Assembly: GCA_965178125.1 (NCBI GenBank)
Contig: OZ237737.1
Location: forward strand, 868,001 to 932,000
DNA length: 64,000 nucleotides
Origin: Bilabrum cf. latius
Lineage: Eukaryota
Direction: 5' to 3'
The translations under genes were made by a program, and so were the position numbers. Of this stretch, positions 38,601 to 63,460 are shown in pieces. Positions within the stretch are counted from its first letter, which is position 1. Every line of letters starts with the position of its first letter. A model generated the notes under the pieces. The model did no database searches, was not told the DNA's origin, and saw nothing but the letters and a program-made list of their open reading frames with translations.

Positions 38601-40137
38601 GCAACGCGAAGCGCAGCGCAAGCTTTCTGAGCTTCGTCGGTTGATGTCGTAGTAGCAGAAAATGCGAGAAGCTGAAGGAGATGGTGTTGTTCGGGTGACA
38701 GCGGAGTCGAAGGGTTTCGATGTTTACATTGGGCACCAGAGCGATGGGCGAGCGATGGTTAAACGACTCGAGCGAAAAGAGCTTCTGCTCGATGTGCACA
38801 CCTGCAGCATTTCCTCAGTGTGCTTGAGAACTCCACAGCTAGTCAGCGGAGATCAGGGCGGCTTTGTCATCATTTGGGACGTGTACAGAGGTGTCCCTTT
38901 GCACGTGGTAGACACACAGCCGCAGACTCAGCTTCCTCGTGGAATCGCTCGCCCAGACCCGATTGCTTTGCGCAAGAATCCGGGAAAGTTGATTGGTGTG
39001 ATCGGTGTCGAGGCCAACCAGCTCGCAAAGGAAGCCGATGAAGACGGAGGGGCATCGAGCGACGAGAACAACGAGGGTCCATCCGGTGCACTTGTTGCTC
39101 GCACTCCGGCCATGAAGCAAGCCTTAGCTATTTTCCATGGCGGGTACAGCATTGCAAAAAGGAAGGAGGCTCAGGCTTCAAAGCATCAAGGTGGGAAGGT
39201 GGTTCCAATGGGCGAAAAGGATGAGACAGCGGGTGTATCCGAGATGTCCACCGACGTCTTGCAGGCAATTCGAGGCTATGATGAGACGGCGATGCTGAAA
39301 GAGGCGGCGATGGACCAACGAATGAACACTCTCAGGGCAGAGAGGGCAATGATGGCTTCCGCACTGACATTTTATCCTGCTGCACTGATTGCAGCGGATG
39401 AAGCAGGCCAAGCGGAAGAGGCACTAATGGAAGAGTACGCTCACATGGCTGGCCCATCTGCAGTGGCAGTCGCACGTCTCAAGGCAAAAACGAAGAAACT
39501 GCCGCCTGCCGAGAGCTCAGAAGGCTAGCAACTGGTTCCTTACTAGTCTCAAGGCTCGGCAAAAGGCGAAGCTGGTGAGACCGAAGCAACCGGTGCAGCT
39601 ATGCTGGCCTCTAGCGGTGTGTCACAGCTGTATGCTAGGCGAAGGGTGGCCATGAAACTCACAGAGGTCACTGCACAAGTAGCTGAGGGTGGTCTTGGCG
39701 TGCTGCCTAACATCTCTAAGGGTGGGCAGAATATTGGTCGGCGCGCCGGTAAGGTTCAGCAACCGAAAGGGTCAACAGCATCAGATCCGTTGATGTAGTC
39801 ATCAAGCGGGCAGGGTACCCGACTTGCAGCGGCCCCGGATCGCCGTTGGCCGATCAGCAAGATCACCATGTCTTCCCGGCGGTATGTGATTGGACTTGGC
39901 CACGGTGTGATCCAGGTGCTAGATGGCACTACTGCTGAGCGACTAGCATCAATTCACCCGGAGCTCGACGAAAGCGCAGAGCAGGATCCAACGTCGATTC
40001 GAGCCGGCGACTTGCGCCTACTTGGCTTAACGTTTGACACGCGCTCAGTCATGGCTAGTTTCAATGACGGCCGCATCAGGCGGTGGAAATTGAACAGCAG
40101 TGACCGCGACGATCTTGTCTTGCTCGATAGAGATTGA
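26670..40137 (+). CDS. Giant FN3 / coiled-coil / WD40 protein (~4450 aa); 5' end uncertain
   Basis: 26880..40137 is a single frame with about 41 TAG and no TAA/TGA until TGA 40135-40137, which is followed by TAA. FN3 motifs PPMAPRDIRV..LEWQPPAFDGGSPVYDYIIRY. WD40 motifs GHSRAVTC..LYTGSADCSIRAW and LASGSADGTIRVWD. Probable intron 26777-26879 (GTGAGT..CACTAAC..CGCAG). A further upstream exon is possible. Confidence 0.85.
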
Positions 40138-40196: not shown

Positions 40197-43100
40197 TCAA
40201 CCAAGGTCTTGCTCTTGCTCAGCTTCTGCATCCTAGATAAGACGAGCTACAGAGTCCATGGCCGCGTCGCCTACCTCACCGTAGGAATTCTGCCCACCAA
40301 CCACGTCATCATGGCTCCTATCTACCTCTTCTCCCAGAGAACCAGGTTCTGTGGGTGCTGCAGAAGCCCAGCTTTCGGCCGCTGCATGGCGCAGCGCAGC
40401 CAACGCTTCCACTGCCTCCTGACTTGGCCTTGTGCCCCGACGGCCTGCGGGTGATGATGCTAACGGGACCGGGGCCATGGACCCAGGCTGTGACAAACCT
40501 GATCCGCCACTCGTATGCCCCTACCTAGTTGGATCCCCAAGAATACCATTAGATCTTTGGCGCTAATGCATAACCTCATCTACTTCCCATGCACCCCCTA
40601 CGTCTGCCATGGTGATCTTTGTATCGCCAGAATTGCCTTGTCGATCAGACCGGCCGTACACACCTGATCCACCGTCCATTTCACTGCTGCTGTGCTCCAA
40701 AATCAGCGGGCTATCAGCACCAGAGGACTGAATCTGGTCATGTACTCCCAACGAGGACGATCCACGGGACGACTTTGTTGCTACAGCAGGTGATGGTCCC
40801 CGTTGCTGAGCAGCCATTCGAGGCACAATACCCTCGGCAACCCAAGCTGTCTGGCCAAACTTCACCGGTGGTATCGCATTTCGAGCGCTAGATTGCCCTG
40901 TAGTGGCACCAACAGCTTCACCAAATCGTTCTATAGGACTTCTACTTTTCTTGACGCCATGGCTCTCCACTAACTCCATGTCAGAGGCAGCATCATCGTG
41001 CTGGCCACCAGCTGCATCGGCACTAGAGGAGCCAGCCGGCAGCCTCGGAGGAGAGTCCAGGCAATCTCCGTCGTCTGAAGAGCTTGTGGAGCCAATAGAT
41101 GTTCGGCCTTTCTCCAAAGGCTTCGTTGTCGATGAACCCACGACATGACCATTTGGCCCAGGCGTAGTGGTGTCGATCATGAAGCCAGGGTCAGAGCTAC
41201 GCCTTGCATTTGAGTACGTTCCAGTCGGTAAGGGATGCAGCTTCATGCGGCAAAGAGCATTGGTCGGTGGTGCCGAGTCTTGGATGCTCAACAGTTCCGA
41301 TCTAACGTTGTTCGATACTTGTCTACGAGATTCATCAACTAGGCCGCCTGCACCGCTCTGGACGCTACCGCACATGGAGCCCTGCAAAGTTCCGGTGGCT
41401 TGATGGACCCGGTGACGACTGGCGCTCCGCCCATCAACCGACAACAGTTCTCCCATAGGCCGCTTTGAGAGCGAGTCGGCCACGACAAAAGAGTCATTCC
41501 GAACAAAAGGCATTTGAAAACCCTGGCTGTCGGCCTTCTAGGATACGTCACTGTGCCGGCCAACAACACTTGGTGCCTGGTCAGAATAGGAGCACATTCC
41601 ACTGCTCGCCCCGCCGATCACTTGCGCAAAGGTCTCATGGGCTGCCTGCTCCTCGCTACTTAGACGGCAGCGGCGAGCTCGTGACTCAAAGCCGTCGCTG
41701 GCATCTCCTTCATGATCGCTGGATCGAGTGACCGGGGTCTCTTGAATGTTGGACTCTATTTTCTTTAGACCACCAGCACGACTACCAAACCGGCTGAAGC
41801 TTGGTCGCTTGAGTCCATCCTGAGGCAACAGCGCTCCAGAGTCTCCGCAAGACTCTTCAAATGGCGTGCTGCTAGCCGAGGACCGCCCACCATCGTGCCT
41901 GTCAGTAAGATCATCGCGTTCGGTGTTTCTCAGCCAGGAATTGCCGGCAATAGCAATGGCTTGTCGTCGCACATCAGCAGCCGAGTCATGTACATGAGTG
42001 GGACTAGCATCTTCGGAGCCGGCGCACACCAAAAGAAAGGCTGGTTGAGACCGCCGACGGGTGCGGGGAGACTGACTTGCCGACCTGCCAAGCCCAGGCT
42101 TCGAGCCTCCTTTCCTTGCAATGGTGAGGCCAACAGTTCCAGTGTGTTGCAATGCTTGATCTGTAGTATTCCTTGAGACTTGCAACCCCCGCTGCAGCAG
42201 GCTCGTTGAGGATCCCAGCTGTCCTAGCATAGCTCTTCGCTGCAAAGCTGTCATGCGCGTGTCAATGCCCGCCTCACGTAGCTGCCTGCGGCTCGATCGG
42301 CGTTCCAACTGAGCAAGCGGTGCATCGATGGCGCCATCTACCGGCGCAACGAATGCTTCTTCACCTGCTACCAATCCTACTGGCCGGACAAGACTTTCTG
42401 ATTTGGGACTCAATACCCCGGCAGATCGTGCGCTGGTGAACTCGTCTGCATTCTGCCCACTAGGATAATGCCCCCCTCGCCCCTTGGGTTCGTCGTCATC
42501 CTACGTCTCGGTAGAGTGACGAGTGCTCACCATGGACATGCGACCACCTGCCTCCCATAGTGCGCTAAGCCTGCTGTCTTGGTGCTGCGTTCCCGACCCT
42601 CCGCGAACAAAGCCATGCGGCTGCCGTTTAAATCGCCCGTGCATCAGCTTGCTTTCACCTCTACTGTGCCCGACGACAGAAGGTAAATCTGTGTCTCCAG
42701 AGCCCACCCTGCTAGAGTGTTGCAGTGGCAGTAGACCCTTCGTTTCTCTGCGCTTCTCCGCGGTCAATCTGCGCGCTGCTTCGCGATCGCCATCACCCTC
42801 TCCCTCAACTTCGTCTGCGTCGGCCATTTCCTGTGCCATGCGATCTTCCTCATCCAGCTCAGCCTAAACAGCTGCAGATTGCCTTGCACTTAAGTACCAC
42901 AGACCGCCAAATACAGACCCCACACACAATGCAGTGGCACCGACAAAGATTACAATACCAATGATAAGCTCCCGCATCGTGAAATTAATTCTCTCACCGA
43001 GTTGAGACGGGTCTTGATGCCTTGTCTGATTCCCTACTGAGCCTGGGTCCGGGTCAATCGAGTCAATCAGGCGAACAGCTGCCACAATGCCAATCAGGAC

Positions 43101-46100
43101 CGCATCTGAGCCTGCACCTCGCGATTCAGAAGCCAAATATATCTGCATCACTAGCAAATAGCAATCCGGAGAATGTCTGATCAACAACAGATGCCGTAAG
43201 ATTGGCAACAAGGTCGTTCGCTACGTTGTGTTCCGCTGTTGATTGATTCTCAGACGAATTATATCTGACCATGGTGCGGTACGCAAGGGTAAACGAGGTC
43301 TACACCCTTGCTGATAGCTCCGATGGTGTGCTGTTGCTGACAAGTTCATTGTCAGCACTGTCGTCACCAGAACGGTCGTCATCGGTTGGCATAATGGTAT
43401 CATCCGTTTGCAGAGCACGCCAAGAGGTTGGGGTGTCTCCACCGTCAGGTGTTGTGCCGTTATCGAACCTGGAGCCGTGCACCCAGGAGTCTCCAGCATC
43501 GTCCAAGAGAGATGGTTCTGACAGTGTATCGGTACCTTCAATATCGACACCATGGTCACCAGAATGCAGCACTACAGTGTCACTACCGTCCAATTGGTGG
43601 CCGTACGTCCATGCTAACGCCCACATGCCCCCGTCCCCGCCATAACCACCAAAGCCTACAGTGCCATCCTGCAAACCCCACATAACTTGGCCACCTAGTG
43701 ATTGAATGATGCCACCGCCCACCAAGTGTGCTAGCCTCTGGCGCATGCTTCGGAAGTCGCTCCCGTCCTAAGGCCCACTCAGGGAGGCTGGCGCGTCTCC
43801 ATAAACTGACAATCCAATGGTACCATTGAGATCAACCTGTAGCCAGTTCATGCCCTCAACCTACAGTGGGGCCAGTGGTAATGTCTCCCGCATGGCAGGG
43901 GGAGAAGAAGGAAGGCGGCTGGGAAAGTTGCTCGGAGATGGACTCGGGCTTGGTGATGGCGAGCTGCTGCCCGTGCTTGAGGCAGTTGGTGTCGAGGAGG
44001 GTGTCCCTAACGGAGTTGGCGCTGCAGTTGCCCAAGCAGTCCCGTTCATTCTGAGCCGTATCAACCTGCCGCCAATAGATGCGCCTCGTGCTGCTCCAAG
44101 CAGAAGCTCATTGGGGTTTACAGCTGCAGCGAGTGACCCCAGGGATCCTACAGTAGCGTCTGCATCAGCTCCAGCAGCAACAGAAACGCTCATTACTGTG
44201 CTGTACTCCGTTGCACCAAGGACAAAAGCGGCCTACGACACTGCCAGTGCTTGCAACCCCGCCAACTGGCCTCCCAACACTTCAAGCACATAAACAGTAG
44301 ACGATGCCGGTCTGAGCGTGCCCGACACGGTGCCACGTCTTTCGATTGCAACGTCTGCCATAGAGTCGTTCGTTGCCCCCTCCACCGGCGCATCCACCCG
44401 ATCTACTCGCGAAGCTCCGAGCACGGCAATTGTAGCGTGAACGCCAGTGGATCCATGCGATGCGCTCGGAGATAGCACTGCAACAGACGAACCGAACCTT
44501 CCCCCCGGAGGCAGTAACGAGTTCAGCTCCTGCCCAAGACTTGAATTCGCTGAGAATCCAAGAACTTCACTGCTGACAGCAGTTCCATCAGCAGCATTCA
44601 AATGGAGGAGAGCCACCGATCCGAGCGCCCCTTCGAGCGTCCAAGTCCCGCTGCTGTTCTGCGATGAGGCAGTTCCATCGCCGGGCTAACCAACGACCAG
44701 CCAGATGGCGCACGGGTCGCCTCCCTCCACAGGAAGATACGAGCTCCAGGCAAGGTGGTCTCCATGCCGGAGGGCTGCGGCTGCTTCATTGGATGCAACA
44801 CAGCTAGACGGACCCATACGACCGATGCTTGCCCCAAATCCAACCCCAGAAGCCATACTAGCTGGAGGATCAACACGAAGAAACTGAGCCACCGTCATGT
44901 TTCTCGACAGCATTGCGATCCCAAGCCATCCAGCGCTGGGCCCAGGAGCACCAACTACAACATCTGGGATTCCGTCTCCATTAAGATCGATTTCAGGCCC
45001 GCCGAGGACAGCTGCCCCGAAGTCAGAGGCTACTGATAGAGCAACTGCTAGCCCCCCACTGCGGGAGCCTACCGTGACAACCTTCCGGATGCTATTGGAA
45101 TGCATGCTCCCAAGTCTGACCAGGAAAACAGCACCTTCTGATGCCATGGCACCAGGAGCACCAATTACTGCATCTGCATGCCCGTCCCCGTCAATGTCCC
45201 CAGCGAACGAAACGCTAGCTCCGAAGCGAAGTGGACTCACAGCCACCTGATTGGCAACAGCCTCTCCCATCCCAGCAGCATTCTCATCGAGCACCGACCG
45301 TGCAGAGAAGGATACATTGCCATCCGAGCCAGACTTGGCCTCCAGTACAGCCACAACTCCAATTTCACTAGCATCGGGAAGTCCTATCAGCATGTCCGCC
45401 AATCGATCTCCGGGCAGCAGGCCTGGCCCCGACAGAATTGTCGTGGCATTCGTACCAGTAAGATATCTGAGCAGTGCAGAGCCACTAGAAAACTCAACTT
45501 CAACAGGCTGAACTCCTTCTAGCCGAACGCTTGCCACCCCCGGCGATGGCGATGGCGATGGCGATGGCGACATCGACGGCGAAGGCTTTACGGTGTTAGA
45601 AGCAGTCGAAGATGGCGTGGCAGAATTTGTTGACGTGGGAGTTGGTGTTGCAGTTGAGGTCGAAGTGGCGCTTGCTGTGGATGACGGAGACACCGAAGGC
45701 GAACGGCTCCCCGTAGCCGATGCTGTGGGGGACGGCGTAATCGAAGATGTAGTCGACGGAGTTGGTGTAGGAGTCGGGGACGCGCTCGGTATTGCGCCTC
45801 CGAGGTGCAGGAGCATCACAGCGCCTCCTCCATCTGCATTGATTATTCCTACAGCCAGATCAAGCCTACCATCCCCACCAACGTCAGGCAAGCTAGCAAG
45901 CGCGGAACCAAACCGATCGCCAGTGCTGAGAGTGCTTGCCAAGAAAGCGTGCTGGGACAAGACTGTCATGTGAGACTGCACCGAAACCTCTCCATCATTT
46001 CGATCCAGCAAGAGCAGATAGACCTCCCCACGAGCCGAAGCACTCAATACATCTCCCACAGCAAGATCTGTCCAGCCATTACCATCAATATCACCAACAG

Positions 46101-49100
46101 CAGCAACAGAATAGCCAAACTCGTCGGAGTCGGAGAACATGTTGGAAGCGAAGCTATTCAGTCCATCGTCCGTTATCAGAGTGGCTGAGCCAGGATTGAC
46201 GCTGCCGTTCCGAGTGAGACTAGCAACAATGATTCTATCGCCATTGTTCATGCCTATAACTAAGTCTACCGGAAACTCGCTGCCAACTGGTGGGGGTAGC
46301 ACGGCAAGATCAAGACCCAAGTTATGGAGGAAGGAGCCATCAAGACCGTACAGTCCGCACCCTACCGCCTATTCAAGTACAGAGTACGATCGTACCGTAT
46401 CATTCCCATTCATGAAAAGCACAAAAATTCCGCCTCCAAATAGAACAAGCCTGTGTAGCTGAGGAGCAGAGGCAATGATGTCATTGATACCATCTGAGTC
46501 AATGTCTCCGGCATCACCAACGACAGCCGTGCCAAACCAGCCATTCTTCTGCCACAAATCACTCGATAGCAGCGGAATGCTTCCATCAATGGATACCTAG
46601 TGCGAAATAGAGCCATTTTTTTGCAAACGAAGTACCCAAATCCGGCCACCTGAACTGAGACGGGGTTCCCCAACGATCAGCCTCGGCAAGGTAGGATCAT
46701 CTCCGAGTGGCTGGGAGGCCATGAAGCCCAAAGAATCTCCGAACTGCGCACCAGTTTGACCTTCATAATTAAATTGTGAGGAATCTGATTGTTTCAGCTG
46801 AACGATCTGCCTGACGGTGCCTTCAGGTCGCAAAAACACCACCGCGACGTCTCCTTCACGTGTGGCCGTGGCGGTATGGAGCCCCATTCCTATTGCAACA
46901 TCGTTCACCCCGTCTCCATCCAAATCTCCGATAGTCGTGATTGATACACCAAAATCAGAATTGGATCCAAGGACGTCGTTGGGAAATCCCCCGGTTCCAT
47001 TCGAGATTATCTAGAACTGTGTGACGTTACCAGCACCAAGCGGCGATGGAGTCACGCTTGGGGTGGTTGTGCTTGCAGTAGTCGATGGTGTAGCAGACAG
47101 GGAGGGCGTAGGACTTGGGCTTAAGGACGGCGGCAGCATCGACCCTCCCATGAATAGGACCAAGACCGACCCAGTTTGCTAGCCACCAGCAGAATTTGCG
47201 TTCGGACCTCCAACTACTAGATCATTACGCCCATCTAAGTCGAAATCTGCCGATGTCACGAAGCCAAACTCATCATTGTCGCCAAGCAACCCCCCCATGA
47301 CAAGGTGCTTGGAATCCAGCACGACGTGATCCAGCACCCAAGTGTCTGTTGCATTCGCCTACAGGAACAAGATGAAGATTGCGCCGGCCCAAGTCTGCTG
47401 CACACTGTCTCTTCGCGCACCAACTGCTAGATCTTCGTGACCATCACCGTTGGAATCACCAATACTCGACATGGACCTGCCAAAGCCGTCAGCGTAGACA
47501 CCGCGCGCCCCTGCTAGGACGTCACCAAAGCCAAGCATGGAGGTTGAGCCAGCAATCCGACCGTCTTGACCTATGTGCTATACTAGGATAGACTTGTTGC
47601 CCGTTGAGCCGACAGCAAGCCTTGCAGCAGACCGTACTGCTGAACTTGGAAATGCTGCGAGCCCTCCTCCCAACTTGAATCCGAATTGGAATGTCGCCCC
47701 CGATTCAGCGAACAAGCGAACGTGCTCACGCACGGTGTCGTTAGCGTTGAGGAATAGGATGAAAACCTCACCGCCATTGAACACGGGGTCGTCAACTCGG
47801 TTCGCCCCCACTGCCAAGTCATTGAGGCCATCAGAGTCAACGTCACCCAGCCCACCTTCGATGCCAATACCGAAAGCATCGCCAGCCTGCAGACCAAAGG
47901 TATCGGAGCTGCTTAGTACCTGGTGTTCGACCCTTCCGCTTGGTTCAAGCCGTAGAAGCCAGAATCGCCCCGTGTCATGGACACCGTCCTACATCCAAGG
48001 TGCACCTACAGCTAATCTCAACTTCTACGGCTCGACTCCATTCGGCTGCTTCAGCGACGACAGGCCAATTCCGAAGCCAGAATAGCTCTCATTTGGAGCT
48101 GTCCATCCACCCTAGGTTCCGCTAATCTTCTGGAATGCCTTCACGGTTCCATTGCGTCGCATAAACAGGATCCACACGGCTCCTTGCTACGTTGCACCAT
48201 CGCTGTCCTCATTCGCACCCACGGCCAGGTCCGGTACGCCATCATTATCCAGGTCTCCAAGTGACTCTACGTCCCAACCAAACTTTGTGTTGGGCAGAAG
48301 CGTTGGATATGCAGCCCCAGAGTTGTTAGCACCCAATTGCACAGCCCGTGCTACGCCACCGGCGGACGCGGGGCTGGGGCTGGAGCTTGGGCTTGGGCTG
48401 GAGCTTGGGCTGGGGCTAGGATAAAGCGCTTCCTGATTGACATGAATCGACATCATTACAAGGCTTCCTGCGTGAATAGCACCGCTAGGATCAGATAGAG
48501 GCATTCCTACTGCCACAAGTGCCTCGTCACCGGGAGCAGCCAGCTAGGATAATCGACGCAAAACAGTAATGGAGGCACCCAGCCGAACCTAGCCGCTGGC
48601 CACAGCACCAAGCGTGGCATTGTTAGTTGCCGCATCCAGTCGCACAGACCGGTACACGGTGCCATTTTCCGGGTGGAGGGTCAGGGTGTACACCGCCCCT
48701 GCCCGTACGCCGTCGACGATTGCCGCGTCGCTGCCAACGAGCACCTCGGGGCGGCCATCGCCGTCAATGTCGCCTAGGAAGCCAGCTGCGCTGCCAAACG
48801 ACTCATTCTGGCTGGATCCCTGGCTTTGCATGCCTCCCTGGCCTGATCCGACCATAAGGCTAGACACGACTCGAATGCCACCATGCAGTGCGCCCTGCGT
48901 GCCGTTGTGAGCTAGCCGAACCAGCACGAGGGCTCCCTGGCCGGGTTTGTGAATTGCCGTGGCCGGAGCCCCTACCAGCAACTCTGAAACGCATTCGGCT
49001 CCGAATTCGTGGCCGATACACGGCGACACCGCATTCATGCTGGCGCCGAAACGGAGGGGAGTGCCACCGAACCCAACTATCGGTAGACCGCCAGTGGAGA

Positions 49101-50101
49101 ACTGTCCTAACCAGCGGCTGCTCTTGATTGTCCGATTGGGGTGGAGGAGGCACACGAGTACTGCTCCAGTGCTGCTGCTTTCGGTATTGGCCCTGCCAGG
49201 AGCCCCCACGGCCAGGCCCTCCTCGCCGTCCGCGTCGAGATCATGGAGGGATGCCACTGAGGACCCGAATGCGTCCCCGTCCTGCAAATCAATGCCGACC
49301 AAACCGCCCTGATTGCTTGCCCATACATTGAAAGAGATCACCCTGATCGCAGCGGAAGCGTTAACCTGAAGCCAGAAGAGAGCGCCAGAGCGTGTTCCAG
49401 GCGCCGCATAGTACCCTGGAGCGCCAACTAGGAGGTACGGGCGTCCTCGGTTTAAGCCCATCATCGCAAGGCTTGCGCCAAACATGCTTTCTGTTCCAGG
49501 ATCACCTTCAAACCCATGGCTGTTCTGTTCAATCACCGAGAGTTCCTTAACTGTGCCGTTGCTGTGCAGCATGAGCACTGCAACTGCACCTGAGGACTAG
49601 TTTCGATGTGCTGCTCCGATAGCTATATCTTGCACTCCATCCATGTTAACATCACCCAATGAAGCTGAGGCAGAGCCGAACAGATCTCCTGAATTGAACA
49701 GTCCCAGTGGAATACCACCTTCACCATTCCCGATCTGCAAAGCTGCACTTACCTCTCCTACGGCAACCTGTGAAAGAACGAAGCATCCAACGAAAAATAT
49801 ACAAATTTGGCAGTTTCAAGCATTCGCTGGTTTGTGTCCAGGCCGACGGAATCGGCGATCGTGAATACTTCGGGAGAGCAGGTATGGCGACTAGTAGTCG
49901 GAATCGAGCTCCACCGAACTCTCGCAAACACCAACAAGAAATAGTAGAACCGTAGTGCAGCCCTGCCGACAGCGCATGCAAAGTATCTTCAACCCTAAGG
50001 TAGTAACTTCCGCAGTTGAGCACCCTCACTGCATTCGTCATACGGCATGCTTTCAGCAGAACTACGGCGGCTATCAAGATAAAAGCTCCACTGATATTCA
50101 T
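40197..50101 (-). CDS. FG-GAP (integrin-alpha-like beta-propeller) repeat type I membrane protein with Ser/Pro/Thr linkers and long disordered tail (~3200 aa); frame break near 43126-43210
   Basis: Exon 1 50101-50030 encodes a signal peptide (MNISGAFILIAAVVLLKAC), followed by intron 50029-49768 (GTGAGG..TTCACAG). Many FGxS..GDxDxDG..DLAVGAP repeats. TM segment LIIGIVIFVGATALCVGSVFGGLWYL. About 24 in-frame TAG; ends TGA 40199-40197. One change of frame is needed before the TM segment. Confidence 0.8.
45541..45790 (-). repeat. Low-complexity Ser/Pro/Thr coding linker including (GATGGC)4 microsatellite
   Basis: Encodes PSASPTPTPTPSTTSS...SPSPSPSPSPG. Similar linkers at about 43900-44010, 47041-47135 and 48371-48420. 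Confidence 0.85.
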
Positions 50102-50652: not shown

Positions 50653-53600
50653 TCACTGGCCCCCCTTCTTGGCAGCCATGGGGTTCACCATGCCGCCGTC
50701 AGCAGTGGCCCCGCTGGTGGAGGTGGTCTGCATCTGGCCAAAGGCCTTGCGTCCCTCCCCACCGCGAGCACCGCCACCGACGCGCCTGCCTCCGGCGCGG
50801 CCGCGGCGAGCACCTGCCGCGGCTGTCTCCAAGCTCGATCCGCGCCGTCCCTGCACGCCCGCGCGGCGCATCTGACGGGCCAGCTCCTCGATGTGCTTGG
50901 ACAGGTTCACGTAGTTGCTGCGGATCTGCTCCCACGATGCGCCGCTCGGCGGGTTGCGCATCTGCAGCACCACCTGGGCGCGCTCCCGGATCTCCTGGGC
51001 CTCCGCCTCGGTCACACCGCGCCCATCCGCATCCGGGATCTCCTCGATCACGGGCCCGTCCTCCGCGTCCTCCTTCTTGGCGGCGGCGTCCTTCTCGGCG
51101 TTCTCGGCCAGGCGCTTGAAGATCGGGTTGGCGGACATGTCGGCGTCCGCGGGCTCGCCCTCCTGCGCCTCGAGTGCATCGGCCACCAGCTTGCGCTTGG
51201 AGGAGCCCTTCTTGGAGTTCTTCATGTTGCGCTGCTTCACCAGCAGAGCCTGCGCGTTCTCGTCGGCGCAGCCGCAGCACACCATGATCTGCTCGGGCAG
51301 CGTCTAAAGCTCGTCCGGCCGCATCTTGCCGCGGCGCACCATCTCCTCCTGGTACATGTACGAGATCTCCGTCACCAGCACGAAGATGAAGTAGAAGATG
51401 GAAGTGAAGATCAGCGTCAGCACCAGGCCAAGCAGAGTGTCCACCTGAGGCTGGAAGAAGTCGCAGTTGTTCTCGATCTCGCACTGAGTCTGGATCGCGT
51501 TGAAGCAGATGCCGGACAGGTTGATCAACAGAGCAGAGAACAGCAGGCCCGACTCCAGCGTGTTCCACGAGAACATGCCCACGGCCACGGAGCCCATGGC
51601 CTGGGCCACGGGGTTCGAGTATCGTACGGACTGGTTCGGGCGCGACCAGTCGGTCTTCTGCCCGGTCTTCTGCAGGCGCTTCTCCACATCCTTCACGTTC
51701 TTCTGCAGCTTGGCCCAGATGCTGTGCTCGTCCTCCAGGGCCAGGATCATGGTACGGCGCAGAGTCTCCTCGCGGTCGGCGGGGGCCATGTACGGCTGGT
51801 GGTACACCTGCAGGGCGTACGCGCACAGCAGCACAAGCAGACTCACGGACAGCTGCAGCGACGAGTTGTTCGCCCACACCAGCGACGTGATGGCGATCAG
51901 TGCCTTGCGGGCCAGGATCACCACGATCCAAGAGTTGAAGCCCATCGTGCCGGCGGCGTACTCGGGACGGAACGCGAAGTACGACCGCTCGATCGACCTG
52001 CGAAGATCGTACGCGCGGGGGTTGCTGATGCGGTCGTACCCCAGGCCCTTGGCGCGCAGCAGCTGGTCCTCCATGATGCGCTCCCGGTTGCTCCACAGCA
52101 CGTAGCCCAGGATGGCGGGGAAGCCGAACGTGTAGAACAGCATGAACACAATGGCGATAGGGAACACACGCATGTGCAGCCCCCCGGGCTCGTAGCATGG
52201 CTCCAGGTCACCCACCAGCATGTACGTGTTCGGATCCGAGTCGTCCACCTTGATGCAGTTCAGCGCCTCCATCAGCGTGGCAGTCACGAACAGGTACAGG
52301 AAGTAGCACACGATGATGCCGCCAGAGATCAGCTTGTTCACATGCGAGAAAGTAGAGTGCTTGTCGCTGCGGCCCAGCACCAGGTACTTGTACAGCGCGA
52401 AACTGGCGAAAGCAAGGAACAGCATGACGCCAACGGCCAGCGGGAATGCGATGGTGAAGTAGAACTTCTGCTCCCACCCGACGTTCGGGCTGATGCACTC
52501 GGGCACGGCAAGGGAGATGTTCAGGTTGAACGCAGACATGTACGTCAGCAGGTCGTCCAGCACAGGCGGGTACTTGATGCGGGCGTTGGCGAACAGAGAC
52601 ACCACCTGGAACCAGTCCACACCGATCGATAGGATGGCGATGTTGATGTTGGTCGAGTTCAGCCACAGACCCATGCCACCGGCGCAGGCAGCAGCGATGA
52701 TGAACGCCACGATCACCACCCACGGGTTGTCGGGACACTTGGCGCACACACCAGCCTTCTTGTAGTAGCCCTCGGCGCACGCGGCGCACCTGAACGAAGG
52801 AGCCTTAGACTCGTAGCCCTCGGCGCACGTGTTGTCGCCCATGCAAGCCTCGGCGGGCACGCAAGGCACGACGCACACACCACGAGCCACCTCATCGCCG
52901 CGCTGCCCGCCAGTCACAGGGCATATGGACAGCTCATCAGGGGTCTTCAGGTCGTACCAGCCACGGCGAGACACCGGGTATGTGTGCGAGTCAGTCTCAG
53001 AGTCGTAGCCGGCGCACATGGCACCCACCATCTCGCCCTGACGGGTCACAGGGCACTGCAGGCACGTCTCGCCCACACCACCGAAGTACCCAAAGTCGCA
53101 GCCCACGATCAGCTTGTTCGAGCTCTCGGCCGACAGCTCGCCCTCCAGCGAGCCAACGCGCACGCTCACAGCCTTGGGACCGGCGGTCAGCAGGTCGGTG
53201 CGAAGCGCGGGGCAGCGGATGGCATCCTCCCACGCCTCGGGCTGCCCGCGGCCTCCCTGGCCCTTCTCCACACGGGCCACCACGTCGGAGCAGTTCACGT
53301 GCATCGCCAGCGTGGCGTTCTCGGTCACCTGCAGACGCCTGCCCTCGGCTGCCTCGCCCTCAGGCGCGCCGATGTCGAACTCAAGGTCGTCTTGAGTGTA
53401 CATGCTGGTCACGTTGATGGCCAGCTCCAGGTTCCAGCCGTCCTGCACGTATCGCACGTTCTGGAACGAGTCGTTCGCAGGCCTGCGCACAGACCGCTCG
53501 TCCTCGAAGCGGCCCAGATACCGTCCAAACACCACGATGTCCTCGGGCTCAGCAGCGGCTCCGATCTGGGCAGAGTTCGTGATATACATGTAGCCAGGAT

Positions 53601-56600
53601 CCACACGGGTAGGCTCCGGGTCACGGTACTCGTACGTCACCATGGATGAGCCAGAGCTGGACGACGACAGGGGAGGTGCCTGCGACATGGGCACCACCAG
53701 AGACGGACTCAGGCGGAGAGGTGCAGCGCGCACCACCTCCACAGACACCTGCTTGCTGGCTCCCACACCAGGCGGCACAACCACACGCATGCTCGTATCA
53801 GTGCGCTCCTCCACGCCACGAGGCATACAGCTGCGCACCTCCTGGATCACCTCGTCCTCGGCAGCCCAGTGGGCGGGGATCAGCCCGTCCACCACGTCGC
53901 GGCGCACGTCCACACTCGTCGCAGACCACTCCATGCTGTCCGTGCGGCAGCCACCGCCGACAAGCACACGCACATGGTCCATGGGCGCACGGTGCGCGGC
54001 ACCCAGAGGCAGGCTGCGGGGCTGGGCCAGCTCCTGGAACACGTCCTCGGTCTCCGAGTTGGTCAGCTCGTCCAGCACGGTGTCGGGGCCGAAGCTGCGG
54101 CCCTCCAGTACCACGGTCGATCCGCGAGTATGTGCGGCGCTCATGCGAGTCAGTGCATCCTCGCCCACGTCCTCGCCAGTGGCCTCGCCCTAGGGCACGT
54201 AGTACGTCAGCCCGCTCAGCTGAGGAGGCGCGAACCGCAGAGGCACGGCGCGGGGCACCAGGGCAGGGGTCGTGTCTGGGTCGTTCCAGCCGGGGATGAT
54301 CACACCCGAAGGAGTGAAGGTCGATGCCTGCGGCTCCAGGGAGGCCAGTGCGCCACCACGAGCGGCCAGCAGCACCACACGGTATCCGATGCCCTCGGGG
54401 ATGGTCATCTCCACGGTCGTGTGGCTCCACGTCACGGACTGGGGACTCGGGCTAGACGGGTCAGTGCTGTTCGTGAAGGCCTCGCCCTCGCCCATGTACG
54501 TCTCGGCACCATCGCACGTGGGGATGGGCCTGGCACCAGAGGTAGGCACCCAGCTTGGGGGAGGGTCGATGTGGCTCAGGAACGCGCACTGCACCTTGCC
54601 GGTCTCGCGGCCCTGCGAGTCGGCCTGGGCAAGCACCTGGCGGCCGAAGTTGCGCCCACGGATGCGCACCACAGCACCTCCCGTGGGGGGCGCCTCCAGG
54701 AATCCGCCAGAGCTACTGAAAGACAGGGTCTGAGCAGACACGGTCAGGGAGTTGCTCGACACGGCGGGCAGCGAGCCATCGCTCATGGCAGACGTGATCA
54801 CCTCCACAGACTGGATCACGGGCCGGGCATAGCTGAACGCACCCGTGTAGACGTTGGACTCCTGGCCTGCCACCACCACGCGCACGTAGTAGTCGGCACC
54901 ACCGCCCTCGGGCAGAGGCACGGCGATCAGAGACTCACCTGCGCCCTCAGTCGTGATGTCGCGCACCACGTACATGCTGTCCACCTCCATCTCGCCGGCG
55001 GCATCGTTGCGCCCGATGTACACGCGCGCTGACTCGTCCACGGGGTACACCAGGGGGTGGTACTGGCCGAGACCAGACCCGCGGATCACGACCCACAGAT
55101 CTGCCTTGACGCCATACCTGTCCAGAGCCTGGTAGTGCTGGTCATCCAGGTCGATGCCAGTGGTGGGCATGCGGTATCCGTTCGTGAAGGGATTGCCCTG
55201 GCTGTCCTGGCCCACCTCCACATCGCGGGCTCCCAGAGATCCGAACATGGACTGCTCCACATCCGCGTCATCTTCCGTGGCCAGCACCACGCTCGAGATC
55301 ATAGGCATCTCGTACTTGAAGCGCACAGGGTCAGAGTCGTGGCCCAGGCCGTGGTCCACCACCAGCACCAGCTCATCGTATGCGCCCTGGCCGCGAGGAG
55401 CATCCACCGTGATGCGAGCCATGCCGGATGTGGCAGAGTCCATGGTGATGGTGGCATCGCAGTCGCTTGAGCTGAAGCCCACGAAGTTGTTCGTCATGGC
55501 AGCCTGGCTGCACGCCACCAGCGAGTACGAATCGCCGAATGTCACGGTGGCCTTCATGCCGAAGTTGTGGCCCTGAAGCACGATGGCTCCACCGGTCGAC
55601 GGGAACGTGGCCGCGTTGGCAGCCGATGTACCGGCGAAGGCAGTACCATCCACCTCGATGGCGGTCACCACGGGCTCGGCGTAGTCGATGGTCACGGCGG
55701 GAGACAGCTGGGTGCCGGCATACACGCGCACGGACACATCGCGGCCCTGCCCTGCAGGCACACGTACCCAGAAGAAGCACAGGTCCTCCAGCTGAGGTGC
55801 CGCTGAGGTAGTTGCCTGGTAGTACGCCTCGCAGGCAGCGCGCACGAAGGTGGCAGCACCGCTGCCCTCGGCCACGAAGCGAGACTGAGACTCGGCGCCA
55901 GGAGTCGTGTCGGGCTCGTACGTCACACCAGTGATGGAACCAGTGTAGATCGCCGGCTCGGGAGCAGTGATGGAGCTAGTACTGAGCTGGCGGCGGTTCA
56001 GCAGACGGCCATTGCACATCCGCTGGTCGTTGTAGTTGACCTCGTCACAGTCGTTGCCAAACAGAGCAAGCACGCCCTTCTCGTCCTGCGATGTGAGCGA
56101 CCGGAACGGCAAGGCGAGGCCCAGCACGTGCCCCTCGCCCGTCGTGGGGTACCCGCCCGGGGGCTGGCCCACAAGGTCCGAGATGATGGGAGCCTCCTGA
56201 GAGACCACCACGTCCTTGGTCGTGTACGTGTGCTCGGTGGCGGGCACGGTGCCCTTCACCTCGTCCAGCTTGTTCGTCGTCTCCACCACAGCGCGCACCG
56301 TGAAGGTACCGGCGCGCACCCACAGCCTGATCATGTCATCGCGCCACGCGATCAGCTGGAACTCCCGCTGATCAGCGGGCAGCTGCGTCTGCTGCACGTG
56401 CGAGACCCAGCCAGAAGCGCTCACGTTGCCACCGGCAGTGTCCTCGGCGAAGTTGCCCTTGTAGAACATCAGCGTGCGGCCCTCGGCCACAGGGTTCCCG
56501 CCAGGCACAGGCTCCATGTGATCCGGCCCGGGCTCCAGCGTGATCAGCCGGTACGGGGTCTCCGTGGCACCAGCGTCCTTGTCGGGAAGCAGCTCGAACC

Positions 56601-59600
56601 AGTCCGACAGCCTCTGGCCGCGTAGCGTGACCTCCCAGATGTTGCGAGTGAAAGTGTTCGCTTGGGATGGCTGTCCACCGAAGGCACGGGTGGCCTGCAG
56701 CTTGAGCTCATCGTCGCCAGACACAGCCACGGTGGTCATCTCGGGGAAGTCCAGCTCCGGCTCATTGTAGTGGAACTGCTTCAGGCTTTCCCAGTCAGAC
56801 CGAGACTCCACCTCGGCGTTTGTTGCCACCATGCCGGTCGCAGCGTCCATGCCCACGAGGCCCAGGCCAAGCACGTGGCCCCGGCCGAACCCAGGAGGCA
56901 CCACCACACGCACAGCGCCCACGTCCAGGGGCAGGCCCTGGCCCGACTGGTACCCAGCCACCTTCCCACCCACATCGTACTGCTGCCACAGGTTGTTCAC
57001 AGTACTGCGGTCCAGGGTGTCCACGAACACGCAAGCGGCGGAATCGTTCACCAGCTGCTCGGCATGGATGGGCACCAGCGAGCCCAGGTAGCTCCGCACG
57101 GCCTGCTCGTACTGCTCGCGGTCCTGAGTCTTGCCCTCGTCGTCATCGGGGATGGAGTCATCATCCAGAGAGGCGGGGCGAGGGGGGAAGCTGGGGTCCC
57201 ACAGGCCAACCACGGCGGAAGTGGGGTCGCTGGCCGGCGGCAAATGCCTGGCGAACATCACCAGAGTCTCCGAGTTCCAAGGCATGGGCTTGGGGTTGCC
57301 CACATTCGGGGTCACGTACAGCGGCGTGGGCAGGCTGAAGTCGAACGTACCGCGGGGGTCGTTGCCGCCGTCACCGCTCGCCTCGCTCACCTGGTCGGCC
57401 ACAGACACGCGGATCTGGAAATCACGCCCGATGCCGGGGCCCAGCTGCACCATGATCTGCTCGTGGGAGATCACCGTGTAGTTCAGCGCGCTGTTCCACT
57501 CGCCAGTCGCGGTCTTGCCGTACTCCACCCACTGCACCATCGCACCGGACGACTGCTCGGGGTCGTACATCTCACGGGTGGGGGGGCCCAAGTTCTGACC
57601 AGTCACCAGCACCCAGGTGCCGCCAGCCGAATCAGCGTCCTCCACACGACGGCCCATGGGTGTGCCGGGCATCATGATCTCGTTCACGGTCGGGGCCTTG
57701 TACGATGCCTGGGGCACCCGAGACCGCTCACCATTCACCACCACGATCCACTCAAGGGCGCGACCAGCGCCAGGCAGGGTCATGCACTCCAGCTGGTAGT
57801 GCGCCTGTGTCATCACGCAGTCGCGACGGGGGTCCAGCACCACCAGGCCAGAGCCATCACCCAGAGCGGGCGCAGGGGCCATGGTCAGGCCCTGGGCCAG
57901 CGACACATTCACGCGACCCTCGTAGGTTGAGTTCATGCCTCCCGGGTCTGCCACCTGCGCGATGTAGTTCACCGTGTCAGGTACCACGGGACCGAAGTTG
58001 CGGCCATCGATCACCACCTTCTGGCTACCCGTGGTGTTGGCGCGCACAGCACCCTCGCCGGTCAGCCCAGTCACAGTGGGGAAACCGTACCGGGTGAAGC
58101 CACGGCTCCACAGAGCCACCTGGCCACCCACCTCCACGGTCCATGCATGCGGGCCGTTTGCGTCCATCCACTCAGGCAGAGCTGCCATCTGGCAGTCGAT
58201 GATGTCATCGCTGCGCACCACACAGGTGGACGCCTCGATGGACTCAGTACCGGCAGTCGCCTTCAGCTGGTCGCCGGGGTAGTTGGGCCAGCGGTACACA
58301 GGGTCAGGGCCGTAGTACGCCGTCACGGGCAGGTCGGAGCTGGGGTTGCCGAAGTACCGGCCACGGATGCGCACCACATCGCCACCGGCAGTGTTGCCCT
58401 GCTGAGGCGGGTTGATGAGCTGGTACACCTGGGGCGGCCTGTACGACAGCGACCTGGTCCGGTACACGATGTTGGTCGACGGCAGCGTGCTCTCCTCGTG
58501 GCTGCACTGCTCGTCTTGCAGGATGTCAGGCGCAAGCACCACGTTCGTGTTGTCGGTGATCCTCACGCTGAGGCCGTGCCGGGCGCCAGCACCGCGCGTG
58601 TATCCCTCGCACGTGATCTGGGTGGACGCCTGGGTCAGCTCGCAGCTCAGCAGCTCAAACTGCCTGGAGCAGTCGGGGCCGAAGTACACAAGCGGCCTGG
58701 TCTCAGCTCCAAGCACCTCCATGGGACCGAAGTTCTCGCCGGTGATGATGAACCGGTTCCAGATGCGCCTTGAATCAGCGTAGCTGGTGGCATCAGCATG
58801 TGCCTGCTCATGAGTGTCGCCACGGGCGATCTCCTGGTCGTACCTGGTCTGGTACTCGGCCTCCCACGACCACCCCTCCGGCTCCATGTTGTGGTTGTAC
58901 GTGTACGAGCTCGTGATGCCAGAGCGCAGGCTGATCACGCGAGGAGGAGCGTACGTCACGGTCTGTAGCTCGGGGGCCTAAGCAAACTGCCCACCCACAG
59001 ACACTCGGATCTGAAGGTCAGCACCGATGCCCTCAGGGGCACCCACAAGCAGAGAGCCATGGTCGGCGCTCTCGATCGACGTTGACACGAACCGGTACTC
59101 GCTAGAGGTAGGGGTCACCCGGCCCACGTACACCATCACAGCCTGCGGGTCGCTGCCCAGGTCAGTGCCAGTGATTACGAACTTGCTGTTCAGCTCATGC
59201 GAAGACCCGGAGCCCACGCCCTTGGTATTCAGCCCACCTGCATTGATGGCCACCTGGTCCATGGTCACGGCCGTGATGTTGGGAGCCTGATAGCCAAACT
59301 CCATCCGCCCGATGGCAAAGCTGCGGATCTCCTCGCCATTCACCATCGCGTACACCACCCAGTTGCACAGACCAGTGCCCTCGGGTGCTGCGCAGTTCAG
59401 GGTGTTGTCGTCGGGGGCAGTGCAGCTGGTGGTCTCGTACCTGCGTCCGATCGCGTTCGTGCCCACCACACGGAAGCTAGTGGCCCGCGAGAAGCGAGAT
59501 CCGGCGAAACGCAGGGTCTCGCCACCAGACGTGGTCAAGGCGGTGCCAGTCGGCATAGTCACGGACTCCACCAGCGGCCTGTCAGTGCCGCCGCTCTCGT

Positions 59601-60558
59601 CGGACACCAGGATGATGCGCACGTCGCCGATCGTCGTGGCCCCGTAGTTGTCAGTGGCGTTCACCTTCACGGTGTACACCAGGCGCACGAACTGTCCATC
59701 GTAGATCTGGTCCGTCCAGCTGATATCGGCGGTCGCGTTGGGCGCCTCAGTCCAGTAGAAGCGACCAGCGGTGGCGTTGCCAGGCTCTCCACCCTCGATG
59801 CCCACGTAGTTCTTGCGGGTGATGTCGGAGCCAGGCCCGGGAAGGTCGCGATGTACCACTCCGGTGGAGCTCTGCAGCAGCTGCACGAACACAGTCGAGT
59901 TCACGTCCTCGTCCTCCACAGCGATCGTGTCGGTGCCGACCCAGGCCATGTCGGCCAGCTGCGAGAAGCGAGCCGTGATCTCCTGGATGTCCTCGGGGAA
60001 CATCGGGGCGTCGTTGCGGTCTTCCAGGCGGATCGTCACAGCCATCTGGGAGAAGATAGCGGCATTCACCTTCGAAGTGGCCCGCACTTGCAGCTTGTAC
60101 TCGCTGAAGCGCTCGAAGCTCAGCCCGCCGGCAGGACCCACGTGCAGTGTGCCGTCATCCGGGTCGATCGTGAACAGTGGCTCTCCATCCGGGCCACCCA
60201 CCTCAGCGTCCTGGTCCATCGAGAAGATCGAGTACTCCGTGTCCTCGTCCTTGCCCTCAGGGTCGATAGCCGTCAGCTTCGCGTCGGGGAAGGCAGACCC
60301 AGGGGCAGCGTTCTCGGGCACAGTCCGGATCGCCTGGGTGAAGTTCATCTGCTCAATGAACAGCGGGGGCTCGTCCACATCGATCAGGTACACCGGAATG
60401 CGGAACTCGGCTCCCTGCTCGGGCTGCTGCAGGGGGGTGGCACGCACCGTGATGAACTTGACAGGGTCCGTCTCGTAGTCGAGGGTGCGTCCACGAGCTA
60501 GGTACACCTGACCGCTGCAGCCGCTGATGTAAAACAGCGTGTTGCCATTGTCATCCTA
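50653..60558 (-). repeat. Inverted repeat of 13324..23229 (about 9.9 kb, no net indel)
   Basis: Homologous coordinates sum to 73882 at both ends (23229+50653, 13375+60507, 13326+60556). Confidence 0.95.
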
Positions 60559-63460
60559 GTAGCCATCGGTTAAGTTATAAATAAGCGTGATGGCATCGGA
60601 TGCGTTGGTAGACACGGAATCAGCGATGGGCAGCCCGATCGGGGTGTCTGCGGTGGCGTCCTCGCGGACCTCAAGCGGCGGGTGGTTGGAGTCAAAGGTG
60701 GGCGGGATCAGCTTGCATTGCACGCCCTGGCTCGACCAGGCTACCTCTCCGTTGCCTTCATGGTTGCACATGGCAGACTGCTCGGACACGTTCTTGGGCA
60801 GGAAGCCCTCGGCGCAGCCCCACGTGCACCCGTTGCCCTTGTACCCTCGCACGTTCAGGCATGACCTGCCAGCACCGCATGAGGTCGAGACGCGATAGTT
60901 GTCGAAGTAGGCAGTGCCGTACACGTACATGCCGGCAGTGCCAGCCTGAATGTCGTTGCGGTTGAACTCCCACAAAGGCTTCGTGTCGTCTAGAGTCTCT
61001 TCCTGGTTCGCCGTGAAGATGTTGTCGGGTGCATCATCACCATCCTTGTTGCGGTAGCCATTCTGGGGTCCCCACAGCGGCGAGAACTGCCCATCATATC
61101 CGTAGTACCTTTCGATGTCGTTGCGCACCTCGTGGGTGTCCGAGGTGGCGCCCTCCTTGGCCATGCCGTGGGTGGCATCCAGGGGCAGCAGCCACACGCG
61201 CACATTTTGGGCCTTCACGCGGGCACGGATGATGAACTCGGGGTACCTCTGGTCGTGACCAGCAAGGCGAGCCTACTCCTTGGCATCGTCGAAGAATTGG
61301 GTGAGGGTGATGTTGCGGAAGCCGTTGAAGCGAGCATCGGCAATGCGCTGGGGGACGTAGATGGGCGGTAGGTTGTTGCTGAACGAGTTGATGTTGCCGA
61401 GGTAGTTCCACCGGCCGTTCACCTGCATGATCAGGTATAGGTACCACCAGGTGGACCCGTAGTTCGTGTAATCGACACGGAAGTTGGTGCGGTCGTCAGT
61501 CATCTTGAAGGTCAGGCCACCTCGGCCCCACTCGAGCTGCATGGTGGCCTCCACGGTCACCACCTGCTAGCTGTCGCCGATGTCTAGCCACGCGGGATTG
61601 TCCTCGGCGTAGAACACAGTCGCCCAAGTGCAGGCACGAGGATCCACCTTGAGGCGGCCGTCGGTCGTGGTCGACATGTAGACGCTAGTAAGGGCAGGGT
61701 TCTGCCTCGGCCAGAAGCGGAAGGTGCGCAGCGGACCCGAGAGGGTGCTTGCCGTGTCGCCATTGAAGTCGGCCGACACCACGGTGCGGTAGCAGCCGGC
61801 AGTGAAGGCGGGACCCTCGGTCATCTCGCACGTCTTCTCGCAGATCAGGTCGTGGGCAGACCACACGGCATTCTAGCAAGTCTTGGTGGCCACGCCGCCC
61901 ACAGGCTTGCCCTGTCCTGACGCGCAGGATTGTGTGCAGTCCCTGTTCTCGAATGGCACTCGGCACCAGTAGTCCGTGCTCGTGGTTGCGACAACCCCAT
62001 GACCGTTTGTGACAGCGTCAGCTGGAGGGCAGCCTCCGGTGCCCCACTTATTGCCGAGGTAAGAGCGCAGTCGGTTCTCATCGTTGAAGTTTGACGAGTT
62101 CATGATCCCAAACTCCATGATCAATCCTTCGAAAGCATTGAAGCTCGCTCCGACCTGGAGTGGGTAGGAGCTGCCACTTGATAGCACGTTGGCTTTGTTT
62201 GCAGCAGAAGTGCCGGTGGGTTGGTCGATGTAGTAATACCAGCTCAACGCATTGTCGACGCTGCCGTACTGGAGGCCGGACGTGCTGAAATCGATCTCAG
62301 CGTAGATCCACACGCGACGCAACTGCGATATATCTTGTTGAGAGGATTAATACTTCAGAGTATTACTTGCAGCAGTGACTAGCGCATGCAACTGGGAGCG
62401 GCTACTCACTCCAGACGAGTAGTCGGTAACCCTTGTGTACCCGATGTACGTCTTGTACAGAGCCGACGACGGGCTGTTTGGCAAGGACATGCCGCCGGTG
62501 TAGCGGAAATTGGTTGTCTTCGAAGTCGACGCGACGAACGCGAATCGGCTGTTCGAGGAGGTGATGGACTGCATCATCTCCCAGTACGTGCGACGCTGCC
62601 CAGAGGCGAATGGTTCACCCTTCCGGAGCATGGTGCCCCGGTTCACACTGTACCAAGAGCTGCCGACGATGTAGATCATGTGCCCCTGCGATTAAATAGG
62701 TGACAAAAAAGGAGTTGAATCCCGTGTATCGCGCTAGTGCCGTCGCAGGCCACTTTCGCGACGTGTCGCAGCGAGGCGATGGTCGTCTTAAACTCACCCC
62801 CGTGCCCATGTTCGCGAAATCGAGCTGGGCATCACTGGGTGCGGTCATGAAGTCACGTCCAGACCAGTCGAAGAACATACCGCTGCGTGGGGGAATCGAT
62901 ACTGGAAGGGAACAAAAATACCGCGCTGCGGCGACTTATAAGCTCATTCTGACTACTCCTTGGGTGGTGCTCTCACGGTTGGCACATCAGCCTCCTAGTC
63001 ATAGTGTAGGGCTGGTTGGTTCTACTAGTCTGTGATTTGTCGTGATAAGGGATACGTTAAGGCAGGGAGGATGCACATACTTACCGGATACCACGGACAC
63101 TCGTTCGCGATCACAATTTGAGGCTACGCCGAAGCTCACCTACGTCAAAGTGCGACCCCTCCAGCTCTTCCAGGTCGATGGGTACGTCGTAGCCGTCTTA
63201 CTGAAGCTAGTAGCTGCGTATTCAAGGGCGGGAAGTTACCACAGGCATCAAATTATGCAGAAGCACAGAATGGCGCGTGCCACATGTCACAGCGCTTTGT
63301 GAGTCCTTCGGCAGCCTTCAGCGGCAGTCTCGATGAACCAGTGTTTGCAGTGGTACTCACTGTCCCAAAAATCGATCAGCTTGGAGCCAAGGGTCTGGTC
63401 TGGAACCATTTGAGCTGCAGCGCATGCTGCCACGATGCACGAGACAGCCACTGACAGCAT
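50653..63460 (-). CDS. Giant LamG/Sushi/cadherin/IPT-TIG 9-TM surface protein, copy 3, complete, inverted (6 exons, 4085 aa)
   Basis: Exons 63460-63361, 63213-63140, 63029-62977, 62882-62798, 62685-62410 and 62322-50653 join in frame (12258 nt). Signal peptide MLSVAVSCIVAACAAAQ. Eight in-frame TAG (63140, 61873, 61567, 61273, 60556, 58978, 54190, 51304); ends TGA 50655-50653. Confidence 0.92.

Follow-up and report, generated by a model that had tools for sequence, protein, structure and literature searches.

In a 64,000-nucleotide stretch of the Bilabrum cf. latius genome (contig OZ237737.1, positions 868,001 to 932,000; G000:C3:868001-932000 in our numbering), hereafter the window, long genes are crossed by in-frame TAG codons, among them copy 3 of a giant membrane-protein gene. 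We conclude from nucleic acid sequence that in the cytosolic nuclear code of this organism TAG very probably encodes glutamine, with TAA and TGA as stops. The sequences themselves establish that TAG stands at glutamine columns, that defined gene ends are TAA or TGA only, that UAG is kept in the transcript and that a tRNA gene with anticodon CUA is present. When TAG is read through and TAA and TGA are taken as stops, eight long frames cover 92% of the window. NCBI translation table 15, in which TAG is Q, reads the window frame without stops; the table is a label for the assignment and is silent on mechanism.

TAG codons at conserved positions

TAG fell mainly at glutamine positions in conserved genes elsewhere in the genome. 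Nineteen dynein heavy-chain genes, spread over 13 contigs, were sampled at 10 kb each (62,836 codons), and in-frame TAG occurred in every gene, with 1–48 codons each and 273 in total. Eighteen of the 19 formed a single frame of more than 3,200 codons; the other was interrupted by a TGA, which presumably lies at an intron. The TAG sites were compared with 150 external dyneins, keeping the 177 sites with at least 40 aligned homologs and dropping 96. At the 35 TAG columns that were at least 60% conserved, the residue was glutamine in 25, glutamate in 6, arginine in 2, leucine in 1, valine in 1 and tyrosine in none; at columns at least 80% conserved, it was glutamine in 15 of 16. Control codons in the same test gave their standard residues. 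The log-likelihood ratio for TAG was +133 for glutamine and −67 for the runner-up, glutamate, and readings of TAG as tyrosine, leucine, glutamate, tryptophan or lysine were rejected, each having a negative or far lower likelihood. The mean homolog frequency of glutamine was 0.204 at TAG, 0.238 at CAG and 0.208 at CAA, whereas at TAG that of tyrosine was 0.016 (0.012–0.015 at CAG/CAA), that of leucine 0.054 and that of tryptophan 0.004.

Codon usage followed the pattern of a minor synonymous codon: TAG made up about 9% of dynein glutamine codons, and its share rose as the GC content of third codon positions fell (Spearman −0.87, 20 pieces). All 20 stops within 28 dynein Pfam matches were TAG, with no TAA or TGA, as were 48 of the 51 stops within 65 Ras matches. 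At the switch-II glutamine of small GTPases, which we take to be Gln61 of Ras, the codon was TAG at eight loci, CAG at nine and CAA at four (the motif was found at 21 of 30 Ras loci).

Gene ends and transcripts

None of the gene ends that could be fixed by a family motif was TAG. These 42 ends (20 GTPases, 8 distinct histones, 6 dyneins, 4 HSP70s, eRF1, the glutaminyl- and glutamyl-tRNA synthetases (GlnRS and GluRS) and the giant gene) comprised 31 TGA and 11 TAA, the dyneins being the six whose C terminus fell in the sequence examined. The terminal cysteine motif was present at 20 of 30 GTPase loci, which end in TGA (16) or TAA (4); TAA also terminates eRF1, histones H4 and H2A, and HSP70s. 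Glutamine for both UAA and UAG (UAR; table 6, ciliate type) was rejected because TAA still ends genes and because opening TAA yields no additional long gene frame in the window. Reading TGA as tryptophan was rejected as well, as it does not join the TAG-broken frames of the window.

It is improbable that TAG has a dual meaning, encoding glutamine inside genes yet ending some of them, or that it is translated by leaky read-through in competition with the release factor eRF1. Such an arrangement would fit the retention in eRF1 of GTS, NIKS, E55, S70 and YxCxxxF, the single CUA tRNA gene found, and five Ras loci (L193, L196, L200, L201 and L203) with TAG in tails that have no terminal cysteine motif, so that their true end is not fixed. 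It is countered by the absence of TAG from the 42 defined ends, a small sample that sets an upper bound of about 7% and would leave room for rare TAG stops, and by a GTPase (L205) whose CITS end is reached only by reading through a TAG 11 codons ahead of the stop. Moreover, dyneins with 22–48 TAG codons each could not be made under weak read-through.

Contigs from runs X8 and X9, which belong to two studies, joined three eRF1 introns at GT..AG and had no changed letter across the eRF1 stretch, including its two TAG codons, one of which closes exon 2. Run X5, which is independent and DNA-like, matched the same stretch without differences. Because the spliced contigs retain TAG, wholesale editing and hidden introns are unlikely. 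The broader proposal that the TAGs are pseudogene nonsense mutations, sequencing errors, splice acceptors (YAG) or codons edited to CAG in RNA draws on the fact that TAG/CAG interchange is also a signature of 3′ splice sites and that two TAGs lie at exon ends beside a donor. That proposal is largely refuted by the presence of TAG in all 19 dyneins, 18 of them with intact frames, and in the sole eRF1 gene found, by the retention of TAG inside an exon in the spliced contigs, by the exact match of X5 and by the fact that TAA and TGA are not tolerated as TAG is.

Paralogous copies of the giant gene

The giant gene occurs in five copies within 105 kb, of which two lie just beyond the window and copy 1 extends upstream of it. 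The copies in the window and the TAG codons of copy 3 are as follows.

2..4867, plus strand: copy 1, 3′ part, with one in-frame TAG (4214) and a TGA end
11479..23229, plus strand: copy 2, last-exon open frame, with one in-frame TAG (13324), a TGA end and an exon-end TAG (10710)
50653..62322, minus strand: copy 3, last exon of the giant membrane-protein gene, with seven in-frame TAGs and a TGA end
51304..51306, minus strand: TAG, also TAG in three other copies (4214 in copy 1) and CAG in copy 2 (22576)
54190..54192, minus strand: TAG in two copies and GAG in three, a Gln/Glu exchange if TAG is glutamine
58978..58980, minus strand: TAG in two copies and GAT in three, within a diverged patch
60556..60558, minus strand: TAG in each of the five copies (copy 2: 13324)
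61273..61275, minus strand: TAG in three copies and CAG in two
61567..61569, minus strand: TAG, with CAG in all four other copies
61873..61875, minus strand: TAG, with CAA, CAA, CAG and CAG in the other four copies
63140..63142, minus strand: TAG closing a small exon, with a GT donor after it; copies 1–3 have TAG here and copy 4 has CAA

The first-pass annotation of the window had claimed that TAG interchanges with CAG and CAA between copies. All 16 codons it cited, with their flanking peptides, lie where it placed them and on the strand it gave, and the copy 3 TAGs stand opposite CAA 12013, CAG 12313, CAG 12607, TAG 13324, GAT 14902, GAG 19690 and CAG 22576 in copy 2. The TAG that it listed as shared at 10710 and 63140 is real in both copies, but it belongs to a small exon further upstream, where it is the final codon ahead of the GT donor. 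Across the five copies there are nine TAG columns, six with CAG or CAA, one with GAG, one with GAT and one invariant. The interchange thus extends to six of the eight variable columns, and the pattern expected of nonsense mutations, with TAG paired equally with all its neighbours, was not seen.

Among CAG columns, 5 of 169 showed a first-position C/T exchange; the same exchange affected 8 of 233 columns with synonymous CTG/CTA codons and 5 of 624 where it is non-synonymous. The CAG/TAG exchange did not differ from the synonymous CTG/TTG rate (Fisher p = 1.0) and exceeded the non-synonymous rate at p = 0.041, in tests on copies that are not independent. Taken by itself, this key is weakly significant and points to glutamine. 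The glutamine meaning that the annotation had put forward draws further support from the dynein columns, the switch-II glutamine, the CUA tRNA, the unedited TAG in spliced contigs and the TAA- and TGA-only ends. Among external homologs of the giant protein no TAG column was conserved; at 24–39% identity these homologs are too distant for its TAG columns to be read from them.

Several observations weigh against glutamine. Ten of the 35 conserved dynein columns carry another residue, although CAG and CAA control columns leak alike, with glutamine in 323 of 429 (TAG versus CAG plus CAA, Fisher p = 0.68). In a pair of flavin oxidoreductase paralogs, 11 of 12 TAG sites are invariant and the single variable site stands opposite TGG. 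BiP (L091) has one TAG where three HSP70 paralogs, all from this genome, have leucine. One eRF1 TAG falls in the column of human Leu69, which is leucine in 111 of 112 homologs, the other being in a column that is glutamine in 110 of 112. Finally, X8 and X9, like every run listed, carry no record as RNA and are taken as such solely from their GT..AG joining, and as contigs they drop rare variants, leaving partial editing invisible.

A tRNA with anticodon CUA

We found a single tRNA gene with anticodon CUA (C23:907607-907679, 69.8 bits), and no tRNA with anticodon UUA among the 30 distinct nuclear tRNAs of an incomplete inventory. The inventory combined an Rfam search with two exact patterns, which miss intron-bearing genes; 63 of 780 candidates were scored, and tRNAs for Leu, His and Asp are missing from the result. 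Its short variable loop shows that the CUA tRNA is not of the Leu or Ser type. Of the 29 other nuclear tRNAs, tRNA-Tyr(GUA) comes closest to it, with 45 of 63 positions shared, as against 37 for the next best, 37 for tRNA-Gln(CUG) and 36 for tRNA-Gln(UUG). In the acceptor stem, 12 of 14 positions are shared with tRNA-Tyr and 6 and 2 of 14 with the two Gln tRNAs; control pairs share a mean of 4.6 of 14, and 3 of 386 reach 12. The acceptor and anticodon stems are each one compensatory pair apart from tRNA-Tyr, a C1:G72 start is found only in these two of the 30 tRNAs, and the variable loop has five nucleotides in both and four in both Gln tRNAs. We favour, with moderate confidence, recruitment of the CUA tRNA from tRNA-Tyr.

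Three points weaken that origin. Eleven of 386 tRNA pairs of other isotypes equal the overall CUA/Tyr score, the inventory is incomplete, and for the UAG = Gln code of Iotanema spirale an origin from tRNA-Gln(CUG) has been predicted (PMC5304391). The same route here, a single anticodon change in tRNA-Gln(CUG) with the tyrosine likeness due to chance or drift, would also fit the D-stem, T-loop and G73, which match tRNA-Gln(UUG). We consider it unlikely, given the acceptor-stem counts, the compensatory single-pair differences from tRNA-Tyr, the exclusive C1:G72 and the five-nucleotide variable loop.

The identity elements of the CUA tRNA are mixed. Eukaryotic tyrosine identity comprises A73, C1:G72, G34 and U35 (PMC9976931); C1:G72 and U35 are present, and G73 and C34 replace A73 and G34. 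The determinants of bacterial glutamine identity include G73, G2:C71, G10 and U35 (PMC9976931), and the G2:C71 pair of the CUA tRNA is Gln-like. Weighing against the glutamine reading are the retention of C1:G72, a eukaryotic Tyr determinant, and the fact that the eukaryotic Gln identity set is not given in the accessible part of PMC9976931. One possible consequence of residual tyrosine identity is ambiguous decoding of UAG, mainly as glutamine with some tyrosine. C1:G72 and U35 would favour it; the absence of A73 and G34, the lack of tyrosine at all 35 conserved dynein columns and its mean frequency there, set beside that at CAG and CAA, make it very improbable. In the laboratory, amber suppressors derived from Trp, fMet, Ser, Asn and Lys(G73) tRNAs take glutamine from E. 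coli GlnRS (PMC9976931), and a variant amber suppressor of yeast tRNA-Tyr receives traces of glutamine from that enzyme (PMC1483225).

The genome has one GlnRS gene, and when it was aligned with human and E. coli GlnRS we recognised no diagnostic feature. As a separate observation, the GluRS gene (L089) has one TAG, at a position where the related enzyme compared, the GlnRS of the same genome, has tryptophan. Several nuclear tRNA-Met(CAU) genes (in the L032-L059 set) are unusually near tRNA-Pro(UGG), with 46–49 of 63 positions shared, which is perhaps another recruitment between families.

The release factor and a possible mechanism

We found a single eRF1 gene, on C35, beside a second Pfam match that is Pelota-like. 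The eRF1 gene ends in TAA and holds the two in-frame TAGs. Besides the TAG at position 69, TASNIKS is changed to TAVNIKS in its product and Ile35 is replaced by Val. Leu69 has been singled out in a rhizarian in which UAG is leucine (PMC5304391), and in yeast eRF1 the L69A mutation raises read-through at all stops, slightly more at UAG (PMC4381064). Some eRF1s of standard-code organisms (Zostera P0001 and several green-alga-like loci) have glutamine at position 69 as well, and L69Q alone therefore cannot explain a loss of UAG recognition. Synthesis of eRF1 would require its own UAG to be read as sense, which would lock the code change in.

These data are consistent with the following mechanism. 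The body of the CUA tRNA would derive from a duplicated tRNA-Tyr(GUA), and the tRNA would be charged by the ordinary GlnRS with the help of U35, G73, G2:C71 and the Gln-type D-stem. It would pair with UAG and not with UAA, so that the two codons stay uncoupled. eRF1 would have lost most of its affinity for UAG, the candidate changes being L69Q, whose own codon is TAG, the altered TAVNIKS motif and I35V. TAG would then be a minor third glutamine codon, making CAG/CAA/TAG swaps between paralogs silent.

Metagenome sequences suggest that the code may extend to a wider bicosoecid clade, or may have arisen twice in it. An eRF1 92% identical to that of the host (L097) has TAG where the host has CAG. 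A divergent eRF1 (L139:497-1297), in the same clade as the host and Bicosoecida sp. CB-2014, has two in-frame TAGs, both opposite glutamine in its sister L134, which has no TAG in 449 codons; L139 also has QIKS for NIKS and an altered YxC motif. All three are single short contigs, and L139 is possibly a second bicosoecid-like lineage in which TAG is glutamine, or a pseudogene. Two other metagenome eRF1s (L153 and L157), long-branched and unrelated to the host sequence in the tree, have two in-frame TAGs and a TGA end and would represent another organism with an altered code.

The host genome and other features of the window

The assembly that contains the window is eukaryotic, with 48.6 Mb in 111 contigs, a GC content of 60%, spliceosomal introns and a ribosomal DNA array with a 1,700-base small-subunit (SSU) gene. 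The nearest named match of the host eRF1 is Bicosoecida sp. CB-2014 (67% identity), with which it groups at 99% support in trees of both 113 and 39 rows, as the sole named member. The mitochondrial contig (C111, 38.4 kb) uses TGA as tryptophan (table 4) and carries atp8, atp1 and atp6 consecutively, features common to the two bicosoecid mitogenomes described in PMC6723347, those of Cafeteria and Cafileria. The host is near certainly a stramenopile and probably a single-celled, marine-type bicosoecid flagellate, judging from these sequences; one point against this placement is an incomplete tree of the giant protein, in which the query did not group with Cafeteria, and another is that a cox1 search gave no named relative among its hits closer than 80%.

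On the same mitochondrial contig (L061-L064), ARAGORN called 11 tRNA genes, below a full set, and import of tRNAs may be needed. A second SSU rRNA (L066; G000:C95:6099-7900), 77–83% identical to that of the C12 array, lies on a 17.9-kb contig that is probably DNA from another eukaryote.

The remaining long frames of the window are listed below.

5234..10186, plus strand: flavin-dependent oxidoreductase-like frame with 14 TAGs, 12 of them past the first Met
23700..26408, plus strand: beta-helix protein frame with 7 TAGs
26875..40137, plus strand: 4,421-codon frame with FN3 and WD40, 41 TAGs, no TAA and a single terminal TGA
40197..43778, minus strand: read-through frame with 12 TAGs; the piece scanned matched no Pfam family
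43126..49815, minus strand: FG-GAP repeat protein frame with 18 TAGs

The 4,421-codon frame is the longest of the window, and its off frames contain 94 and 153 TAA plus TGA codons. The last two frames share about 650 bases (43126-43778), and the downstream gene there probably starts further 3′ than its open frame implies. Copy 3 of the giant gene encodes a cadherin-like/IPT-TIG ectodomain with C-terminal hydrophobic segments, and its small 5′ exons extend to an ATG at 63460; a TIG domain was also detected in copy 2. Named homologs of the protein come from Cafeteria, Phytophthora, Hondaea and MAST-4. The five copies (G000:C3:842748-945279) encode a membrane protein of 3,900 residues, stand as three direct and two inverted copies and are 96–99% identical; their patchy pairwise differences suggest gene conversion. 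Two distant paralogs (about 28%) flank the cluster at its edges.

Relation to known codes

To our knowledge, UAA and UAG nearly always change meaning jointly, and the nuclear genomes in which they part are very few. The code itself is already known, though rare: in the fornicate Iotanema spirale UAG is likewise glutamine and UAA a stop, with the two codons uncoupled (PMC5304391), and the ciliates Hartmannula sinica, Trochilia petrani and Protocruzia tuzeti have reached the same UAG-only glutamine table by independent origins (PMC11687900). Iotanema belongs to another supergroup, its tRNA is only predicted, from tRNA-Gln(CUG), and its eRF1 carries T32G (PMC5304391); in the present host the tRNA gene itself was found and looks Tyr-like, GTS is intact, and the main stop is UGA (31 of 42) rather than UAA. 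In H. sinica and T. petrani a suppressor tRNA was not detected and UAA ends 87–98% of genes (PMC11687900). The ciliates are AT-rich, whereas the host is GC-rich (60%) with UGA as its main stop. The rhizarian exLh reads UAG as leucine, not glutamine, and its eRF1 is also altered at Leu69, to alanine instead of the TAG-encoded glutamine of the host (PMC5304391). In a known organellar case, too, recoding relies on the recruitment of a tRNA that belonged to a different amino acid, but there the change is from sense to sense, whereas the one considered here is nuclear and from stop to sense.

The host departs from the known cases in its lineage, in the predominance of UGA stops and most of all in its Tyr-like tRNA. 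The case list in the accessible part of PMC11687900 names no stramenopile. In the literature that we covered, with subscription papers and supplements outside it, we found no nuclear case in a stramenopile or bicosoecid, a prior report being possible, and no Tyr-derived glutamine suppressor in a natural code. The full scenario is tentative, its chances falling a little short of even: a first nuclear stop reassignment in stramenopiles, through a recruited tRNA-Tyr(GUA) that underwent G34C and was then handed over from TyrRS to GlnRS by A73G, G2:C71 and a Gln-type D-stem.

A single well-assembled genome here combines the code with its tRNA, release factor and synthetase, including a tRNA for UAG as glutamine that was not found in the earlier cases compared. 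It opens to testing the source of new stop-reading tRNAs and the identity of the eRF1 changes that drop UAG yet keep UAA and UGA. Annotation of the host under the standard code would fragment most of its long genes. If true, the recruitment of tRNA-Tyr would mirror in nature the amber suppressors that change to glutamine in the laboratory.

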